Source: Escherichia coli
GTDB lineage: Bacteria > Pseudomonadota > Gammaproteobacteria > Enterobacterales > Enterobacteriaceae
Direction: 5' to 3' (one strand)
Length of the DNA stretch: 64,000 nucleotides
Assembly (NCBI RefSeq): GCF_048403405.1
Contig: NZ_CP183129.1
Below, piece after piece: positions 7,661 to 56,097 of the stretch (within the stretch, counting starts at the first letter, position 1; each line of letters starts with the position of its first letter). The notes beneath the pieces were generated by a model. It ran no database searches and had not been told where the DNA came from. It saw only the letters and a list, made by a program, of their open reading frames with translations. Both the position numbers and the translations under genes were made by a program.

Positions 7661-8074
<414 letters not shown>

Positions 8075-8382
8075 TTATTCAGCCTCCTGTCTGGGTCAGC
8101 CGAATCCCGGGGAGGCAAGGAACGTGTTAAAGGTCGGCTGAAAAATGACGCGTTATAGTACTGACATACCCCGCTAAACTCAAGGCCAGCCGACAAATAA
8201 ATCTCATCTTTCACCAAATCGTACTAACACGCTGATTTGAAGTTCATCACACTTCATCATGGTGTTTTTTTGAACAACTGCATCAGAAATGGTCACCATC
8301 AACTTCTTTATCATTGATTAAAATTAAATCAGAAGATCATCACAGAGGAGAGCACACAAAGTCAGCCGTTGAGGAGGTATCT

Positions 8383-40426: not shown

Positions 40427-40502
<76 letters not shown>

Positions 40503-40537
40503 TTGGGTGGTCTGTGCTTTACAGCACTTTCAAATTT

Positions 40538-40613
<76 letters not shown>

Positions 40614-40770
40614 TTAATCTTCGTCTTTCGAACCGCTACTGCCTTGGCTGCCTTCACTCACCTTAGTCACTTACTTTTGTAAGCTCCCAAGGATTCGTTC
40701 AGTTGCCGCCTTGTCGCAATTCGAAATACTGCGATTGGGTGGTCTGTGCTTTGCAGCACTTTTCAAATTT

Positions 40771-40846
<76 letters not shown>

Positions 40847-54928: not shown

Positions 54929-55462
54929 ATGCGCCTGCTCCCTCTCGTTGCCGCAGCGACAGCTGCATTTCTGGTCGTTGCCTGCAGTTCTCCTACGCCG
55001 CCGCGTGGCGTGACCGTAGTGAATAATTTCGACGCTAAACGCTATCTCGGTACCTGGTATGAGATTGCCCGTTTTGATCACCGTTTTGAACGTGGACTGG
55101 AAAAAGTCACCGCAACATACAGCCTGCGGGATGATGGCGGCCTGAATGTCATTAATAAAGGCTATAACCCTGACAGAGAAATGTGGCAGCAGAGTGAAGG
55201 GAAAGCGTACTTTACCGGCGCACCAACTCGCGCTGCGCTGAAAGTGTCATTCTTTGGTCCTTTCTATGGCGGTTATAACGTTATTGCACTCGATCGGGAA
55301 TACCGCCATGCGCTGGTTTGCGGCCCGGACCGCGACTACCTGTGGATACTCTCCCGCACGCCAACCATTTCTGACGAAGTGAAACAGGAGATGCTGGCAG
55401 TCGCGACCCGGGAAGGGTTTGATGTCAGTAAGTTTATTTGGGTACAGCAGCCCGGTAGTTAG
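54929..55462 (+). CDS. blc: Outer-membrane lipocalin lipoprotein Blc
   Basis: ORF 54929..55462, 177 aa; lipobox VVACSSP; lipocalin fold recognised. Confidence 0.9.
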
Positions 55463-55776
55463 TGAGTGCTGAGTTTCAGACCAATAATCCCCAATACGAT
55501 TAACGCCAGACTCGCCAGGCGCATCGGGTTAGCGGACTCGCCGAGCAGCACAATGCCGGTGATGGCCGCGCCGACTGCGCCAATACCCGTCCACACGGCA
55601 TAAGCCGTCCCTACTGGTAACGATTTCATCGCCCAGGCAAGTAGCGCCATACTGACAATCATCGCCGTCACAGTAATAACACTTGGCGTCAAACGACTAA
55701 AGCCGTGGGTATATTTCAGGCCAACGGCCCATACCACTTCCAGCAGACCAGCAATAACTAAGATAATCCAGGACAT
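55459..55776 (-). CDS. sugE: SMR-family guanidinium exporter Gdx (SugE)
   Basis: Track ORF to 55839; ATG at 55776 gives [21 protein letters not shown]..., 105 aa, four TM helices with a conserved Glu in TM1. Confidence 0.9.
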
Positions 55777-55794
55777 ATCAGGCTCCGGAGAATT

Positions 55795-55840
55795 GGGGCC
55801 GTCCCCGGTGAAAAGAGGCGTTTGCAGGTCGTCCTGCAAA
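55795..55840 (-). ncRNA. Guanidine-II (mini-ykkC) riboswitch in the sugE leader: two hairpins with ACGR loops
   Basis: Minus-strand RNA reads UUUGCAGG-ACGA-CCUGCAAA, then a 14-nt linker, then GGGG-ACGG-CCCC, ending about 18 nt before the GGAG Shine-Dalgarno and AUG of sugE. Confidence 0.65.
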
Positions 55841-55907
55841 GCTGATGGTTGAACGGATATTTTGCCAGGTGGCAGGGGAATTTCAACTATTACCTTTGTG
55901 ACTATCG

Positions 55908-55944
55908 CAAAAAAACAAACGGCACGACATAACTGTCGTACCGT
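55908..55944 (-). terminator. Intrinsic terminator downstream of ecnB
   Basis: On the minus strand: ACGGTACGACA-GTTA-TGTCGTGCCGT followed by UUUGUUUUUUUG. Confidence 0.6.
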
Positions 55945-55950
55945 TATTGC

Positions 55951-56097
55951 TTACTGCTGCGCTTTCGTTGCTGCGCCAGAAATCGCGTTACCGCCATCAG
56001 AAATGTCTTCACCAACGCCACGCGTGGTGTTGCAGGCAGTTAATACTGTTGAAAGCACCAGAACAGAAAAGATCGCTGCAATTGTCTTCTTCACCAT
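55951..56097 (-). CDS. ecnB: Entericidin B small lipoprotein (48 aa)
   Basis: Below the 60-aa track cutoff; manual translation from ATG 56097 gives [48 protein letters not shown] with a lipobox, ending at TAA 55951. Confidence 0.75.

Follow-up and report, generated by a model that had tools for sequence, protein, structure and literature searches.

The guanidine-II riboswitch of the Escherichia coli gdx (sugE) leader and the predicted partners of its Shine–Dalgarno sequence

Guanidine-II (mini-ykkC) riboswitches consist of two hairpins with GGACGRCC cores, each capped by an ACGR tetraloop, joined by a variable linker of 7–40 nt (mostly at least 13 nt) and placed just 5' of the ribosome binding site (RBS) of a guanidine-related gene. 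Guanidine-I (ykkC), guanidine-III and guanidine-IV riboswitches share the ligand and the gene classes under control, Gdx/SugE exporters and guanidine carboxylases. Their folds and mechanisms are unrelated to those of guanidine-II: guanidine-I and -IV act on transcription, and guanidine-III folds into a pseudoknot. For the guanidine-II family it is established that translation is switched ON by guanidinium-stabilised loop–loop kissing of the hairpins P1 and P2, which exposes the Shine–Dalgarno (SD) sequence. For E. coli, the OFF state is modelled inconsistently in print. For Pseudomonas aeruginosa, the linker together with the 5' end of P1 has been proposed as anti-SD element (Reiss and Strobel, PMC5558903), whereas for Gloeobacter violaceus, Huang et al. 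proposed a mutually exclusive stem that overlaps both P2 and the RBS (PMC5486947).

The element in front of E. coli sugE (gdx) is itself already known. It is the published E. coli guanidine-II representative, present in Rfam and in the literature, and E. coli is named as a guanidine-II host in a review from 2025 (PMC12186494). Schamber et al. investigated a 49-mer of the E. coli sugE aptamer, the native sequence with two added 5' G residues, by NMR and SAXS. They report a KD for guanidinium of about 130 μM by NMR, with the ACGA loop of P1 as the strong site and poor ligand binding by the native ACGG loop of P2, and P1–P1' intermolecular dimers form in vitro (PMC9300104). By smFRET, an intrastrand kissing state that depends on ligand is seen for the E. 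coli sugE aptamer (PMC9094411). Constructs in the published NMR/SAXS and FRET studies are 47–49 nt long. Poor binding by the ACGG loop, together with the P1–P1' dimers, implies that for E. coli the textbook model overstates the strength of the intramolecular P1–P2 kiss. On the genetic side, Kojima and Ito describe a mutant (ZX-1) in which loss of 20 bp, positions −30 to −11 upstream of gdx, renders gdx expression constitutive; in the same work, guanidinium induces gdx and gdx-dependent Cs+ resistance (PMC13064478). Ligand binding, loop–loop dimerisation, in vivo induction by guanidinium and constitutive expression on P2 deletion have all been shown by others on this same RNA.

Here, we analysed 64,000 nt of the E. 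coli chromosome (assembly GCF_048403405.1, contig NZ_CP183129.1), referred to as the window, in which the local gene order is ampC, blc, sugE/gdx, ecnB, ecnA, efp, epmB. The hairpins, linker, spacer and SD sequence listed below are assigned from the sequence, and the coding sequence from translation of the open reading frame.

55821..55840, minus strand: P1 hairpin, 8-bp stem UUUGCAGG/CCUGCAAA with ACGA tetraloop (loop 55832..55829); Rfam model positions 1–20
55807..55820, minus strand: linker CGCCUCUUUUCACC, 14 nt, joining P1 to P2
55795..55806, minus strand: P2 hairpin, 4-bp stem GGGG/CCCC with ACGG tetraloop (loop 55802..55799); Rfam model positions 35–48
55787..55794, minus strand: spacer AAUUCUCC between P2 and the SD sequence
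55786..55783, minus strand: SD sequence GGAG, 6 nt 5' of the AUG
55459..55776, minus strand: gdx (sugE) coding sequence, 105 aa, SMR guanidinium exporter and regulated gene; AUG at 55776..55774

Both stems are perfect and both hairpins contain the GGACGRCC core. An earlier, sequence-only reading of this DNA had described an ACGA-capped hairpin and a GGGG-ACGG-CCCC hairpin separated by 14 nt in the sugE leader, and exactly this arrangement is found on the minus strand (P1 55840..55821, P2 55806..55795). Its distance of about 18 nt between P2 and GGAG has to be corrected: the 3' end of P2 lies 8 nt from GGAG, and 18 nt is the distance to the AUG. The gap between GGAG and the AUG of gdx is filled by CCUGAU, and a GGAG-like purine run occupies the equivalent position in orthologous leaders. 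The 105-aa open reading frame scores 193.5 bits against the NCBIfam SugE equivalog NF008512 (cutoff 126), and the same gene is annotated in MG1655 as 'gdx, guanidinium exporter'.

The comparison with the published E. coli sugE/gdx guanidine-II riboswitch is one of identity: locus, sequence, two ACGR hairpins, 14-nt linker, an SD sequence just 3' and a gene for the Gdx exporter all agree. The aptamer shows no difference to the published representative; like K-12, the window has C at both 55817 and 55790, positions at which many E. coli strains have G and U. The oligonucleotide in PDB 5NDI, crystallised as a P1 dimer with guanidine, corresponds to window positions 55840..55821 apart from the bromocytidine used for phasing (PMC5486947). 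The ZX-1 deletion maps to 55806..55787, which is P2 plus AAUUCUCC, with the linker and the SD sequence kept. The P. aeruginosa and G. violaceus riboswitches belong to the same family and agree with the E. coli element in loop chemistry and in the proposed logic of a translational ON switch. In contrast to E. coli, where P2 has four G-C pairs and an ACGG loop, these two, of which P2 and P1 hairpins were crystallised, carry ACGA in each loop and have P2 stems of at least 6 bp.

Many E. coli genomes match the 751-bp stretch around the element with 100% identity, and 5,425 of 5,426 complete genomes contain it. Two features lie between the element and ecnB.

55908..55945, minus strand: strong intrinsic terminator of ecnB, 12-bp stem and T-run (terminator scan)
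55859..55886, minus strand: candidate sigma-70 promoter for gdx, TTGAAA, 16 nt, TG-CAAAAT (consensus scan only)

The terminator sits just 3' of the ecnB stop codon (ORF 55951..56097) and forms the upstream limit of the gdx regulatory region, leaving only about 70 nt for a promoter before P1. The candidate promoter at 55886..55859, between this terminator and P1, would start the transcript about 10 nt before P1; the evidence for it is weak, because one such site was found and 0.8 were expected by chance. Elsewhere in the window, an RpsF leader (RF02893, 110 bits; 8054..8138, minus strand) and three identical tandem tRNA-Gly(GCC) genes (40427..40846, minus strand) are ordinary known features of E. 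coli. The sequence-only reading had left room for the riboswitch being unannotated. This holds for the feature tables of the RefSeq records examined (118UI and MG1655 in full, feature summaries of about 45 E. coli records), which contain only the CDS and no riboswitch feature at the locus, but not for Rfam and the literature, to which the element is already known.

Rfam model RF01068 (Guanidine-II) matches 55840..55794 on the minus strand with 50.4 bits against a gathering score of 32. The match covers all 48 model positions, is not truncated and has an E-value of 5.2e-7 for a covariance-model search of the whole window on both strands. Other guanidine riboswitch classes (guanidine-I, -III and -IV) were not detected in the window by the Rfam scan. 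Read by themselves, two numbers would agree with both hairpins being chance inverted repeats in an intergenic region that have no regulatory role: the 8-mer GGACGRCC alone occurs at chance rate (three copies in the window vs. 3.25 expected), and the whole-leader fold has only a modest z-score of −1.88. Two of the three copies, however, are 30 nt apart on the coding strand just 5' of gdx, each tipping a perfect hairpin. The E-value of the covariance model, the compensatory changes that conserve the element across genera and phyla, and the binding, structural and genetic data published for the same sequence all speak against coincidence. Chance formation is already refuted by the comparative data together with the published experiments, and we leave it practically no probability.

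The comparative data come from a Gdx protein scan with one genome per species, which yielded 80 loci. Among the 20 closest orthologous loci, Guanidine-II is found by Rfam directly 5' of the gene in 18; of the other two, one (L010) is cut off by a contig end. A simple hairpin search detects a pair of ACGR-capped hairpins at a distance of 18–50 nt in 45 of 81 Gdx leaders, namely that of the window and those of 44 of the 80 loci. These leaders span Enterobacterales, Bradyrhizobium, Mesorhizobium, Burkholderiales and others. In the alignment of 18 leaders, P1 is 93.8% paired and six of its eight pairs show changes on both sides. Its covariation score is 0.483 compared to 0.173 in shuffles (0 of 500 reach 0.483), and controls with slid partners stay at or below 0.20. 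Loop-anchored gapless alignment of distinct hairpins in a wider set extends this result: seven of eight P1 pairs are changed on both sides (42 sequences), and so are five of seven P2 pairs once distant species are included (29 sequences). As the hairpin picker demanded three loop-proximal pairs, only the outer pairs are unbiased in these covariation counts. The same limit applies to the two loop-proximal pairs, which are G-C in 41–42 of 42 P1 and 28–29 of 29 P2 ortholog sequences, since the regular expression of the picker required at least three loop-proximal pairs. In close enterics, GGGG/CCCC of P2 is invariant, and this subset is uninformative on covariation. Ortholog linkers are 9–21 nt long with little sequence conservation.

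The identification of paired ACGR hairpins ahead of an SMR exporter as a guanidine-II riboswitch, made in the sequence-only reading, agrees with the RF01068 match, the conservation among orthologs, the helix covariation and the literature on the same RNA. None of the evidence counts against this identity. We conclude, with near certainty, that the 5' leader of gdx (sugE) harbours here the E. coli guanidine-II riboswitch, acting as translational ON switch. Its proposed role as a ligand-controlled switch for this gene is in line with the published guanidinium induction and the constitutive expression on P2 deletion (PMC13064478).

The ortholog set contains several variations on this architecture. 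Most close enterics combine a P1 loop of ACGA with a P2 loop of ACGG; in more distant ones, both loops are ACGA. In Enterobacteriaceae bacterium RIT691 (L012:939-986), the loops are swapped, with ACGG in P1 and ACGA in P2. In eight Mesorhizobium/Rhizobiales leaders (L053, L054, L059, L064, L068, L069, L079, L082; region about 45–120 nt 5' of the gene start at 1001), P2 lies 44–72 nt from the AUG. The same loci contain an extra GC-rich hairpin between P2 and the SD sequence. This suggests an expression platform unlike that of the enteric type, where P2 abuts the SD sequence. The multidrug resistance plasmid p8538-NDM-1 of Providencia vermicola (L007) carries a Citrobacter-type sugE (1001-1315) with an intact guanidine-II riboswitch (938-982, 47.2 bits), whose hairpins are identical to those of Citrobacter werkmanii. 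This arrangement agrees with published plasmid-borne gdx under guanidine-II control (PMC12186494).

Twenty Gdx-homologue loci without the two-hairpin motif were scanned with Rfam as a planned independent check of the link between gene and ligand. In 19 of them (L022, L025-L027, L030-L032, L034, L035, L038, L041, L043, L044, L048, L055, L057, L058, L060, L061), no guanidine riboswitch of any class was detected in the 1 kb flanking the gene on each side. The sole match was a weak guanidine-II in L033, and the check added nothing.

In the E. coli switch, P1 (ACGA) and P2 (ACGG) each offer a guanidinium pocket. In the presence of guanidinium and Mg2+, the loops kiss via their C-G dinucleotides, by which P2 would be locked as a hairpin. 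Locking of P2 would free GGAG, located 8 nt further 3', the ribosome could initiate, and the Gdx guanidinium/H+ antiporter would be made.

For the ligand-free state, we consider it an even bet that P2 itself, rather than the linker, supplies the nucleotides that hold the SD sequence. Two ways of pairing are conceivable. In the first, the loop and 3' arm of P2 would pair with GG-G-CC of the SD region (CCGGAGCC is the complementary segment). In the second, CCGGGGA would pair with UCUCCGG. If P2 nucleotides hold the SD sequence, aptamer folding and SD sequestration would be mutually exclusive, as in the stem proposed for G. violaceus by Huang et al. The predicted minimum free energy (MFE) structure of the leader retains P1 but not P2 (−27.2 kcal/mol vs. 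−25.7 kcal/mol with P2 forced; P2 probability 0.10). In this structure, GGGAC is paired with GUCCU, which comprises the start-codon G and codon 2, GGC with GCC, and CC with GG of the SD sequence. P1 is predicted to be stable with or without P2, with pair probabilities of at least 0.95. When the UTR is folded alone, a 7-bp helix CCGGGGA:UCUCCGG replaces P2 in the MFE structure (−22.8 kcal/mol); it joins the last linker nucleotides and the 5' arm of P2 (CCGGGGA) to the spacer UCUCC plus the first two G of the SD sequence. Across 37 orthologous leaders, the commonest predicted partner of the SD sequence is the 3' arm of P2 (mean 0.30), which predominates among E. coli-like and Bradyrhizobium leaders; in other lineages the linker, the 3' arm of P1 or the CDS takes this place.

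The same riboswitch could also work with an anti-SD element in the P1–P2 linker, where CCUCU would pair with GGAG and kissing would pull the linker off the SD sequence. Beyond its publication for P. aeruginosa, this model was drawn for E. coli by Schamber et al. (PMC9300104), and CUCU can indeed pair with GGAG (C-G, U-A, C-G, U-G). With P1 and P2 formed, a linker:SD helix lowers the predicted energy from −17.6 to −19.2 kcal/mol. Likewise, when both hairpins are forced in the UTR alone, the optimum, at −21.7 kcal/mol, adds a linker:SD helix, and the linker is the main predicted SD partner in five orthologous leaders (L014, L015, L023, L028, L052). The predicted linker:SD duplex in E. coli is weak, however, with −3.5 kcal/mol compared to −7.9 kcal/mol for P2:SD. 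Among close enteric relatives, the linker shows no sequence conservation (e.g. GCAUCUCACACC), and a common E. coli polymorphism, C>G at 55817, falls within this segment. It is also hard to see how the ligand would act if P2 were folded in both states. Finally, ZX-1 retains linker and SD sequence and yet is reported to be constitutive; with P2 and spacer gone, an inhibitory element within one of these two is the simpler explanation. Nearest-neighbour folding of the leader favours the P2-overlap model, and we regard sequestration by the linker as rather unlikely.

Folding predictions also set a limit to what can be said about SD sequestration by P2. Competing structures lie within about 1–1.5 kcal/mol of one another. 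When P1 and P2 are forced in silico for E. coli, the predicted accessibility of the SD sequence does not rise but goes from 0.33 to 0.27, as codons 2–3 then pair with it. With the SD sequence closed in this way, nearest-neighbour thermodynamics cannot demonstrate the switch; kissing loops are not modelled by such folding. The alternative pairing of P2 with SD/AUG gave no covariation better than shuffles: 86.5% of the cells are pairable and one pair is changed on both sides, in columns that are conserved for other reasons (aptamer, SD sequence, CDS).

An action at the level of transcription or mRNA stability would be a further possibility. P1 and the U-rich linker could act, partly or wholly, as a weak terminator or pause site, or untranslated gdx mRNA could be degraded. 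P1 together with CGCCTCTTTT is called terminator-like by the terminator scan, the rise of gdx in ZX-1 was found by RNA-seq, i.e. at the mRNA level (PMC13064478), and guanidine-III couples translational control to RNase E protection (PMC12186494). The U-run CGCCUCUUUU, however, is interrupted and not conserved in orthologous linkers, and the terminator reading is given low weight for this lack of conservation. The stability of P1 with or without P2 leaves no obvious ligand-dependent anti-terminator, and more mRNA is the expected secondary effect of better translation. The guanidine-II class as a whole is predicted to be translational because P2 adjoins the SD sequence in nearly all its members. 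The terminator-like call on P1 and CGCCUCUUUU (55821..55840 and 55811..55820, minus strand) is probably incidental, a transcriptional mechanism is unlikely, and we attach very little probability to any contribution from transcription or stability.

Of 5,426 complete E. coli genomes, 5,412 contain the 77-nt leader, and 2,259 of these 5,412 show 95–99% identity across its length. Two polymorphisms account for the SNPs in three sampled variant genomes, both outside the hairpins: the linker change 55817 C>G and the spacer change 55790 C>U (minus strand). The linker SNP occurs in all three and the spacer SNP additionally in two, the Nissle-derived SYNB1934 among them. The change at 55817 alters the CCUC stretch that is labelled anti-SD in some published cartoons, and the change at 55790 retains a G-U pair in the predicted alternative helix. 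In about six genomes the leader matches only in part, and about 13 others contain the region but show no match to the leader.

E. coli strain 167, isolated from urine, carries a natural 29-nt deletion (NZ_CM132950.1, L083:2501-2546) that corresponds to window positions 55819..55791. It removes linker sequence, the whole of P2 and AAUU, and leaves P1, CUCC-GGAG and sugE intact. Wild-type genomes also match a junction query for this deletion, as two joined pieces of equal rank, and the query does not separate the alleles. The strain 167 deletion is the natural counterpart of the laboratory mutant ZX-1 with its 20-bp deletion and constitutive gdx. We consider it possible, though with a probability somewhat short of even, that the expression platform overlaps the aptamer and that alleles lacking P2, such as that of strain 167, would make Gdx constitutive in some clinical strains.

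The value of this element as a discovery is small, given that the E. coli sugE/gdx riboswitch is in Rfam, has been crystallised and is characterised both biophysically and genetically. Annotation pipelines could add the element, which is absent from the RefSeq feature tables examined. The rare natural P2 deletions present in E. coli genomes could be used as natural experiments on constitutive expression of Gdx. If the overlap of aptamer and expression platform holds true, the tolerance of P2-less clinical strains to guanidinium-type biocides or to Cs+ could be affected.
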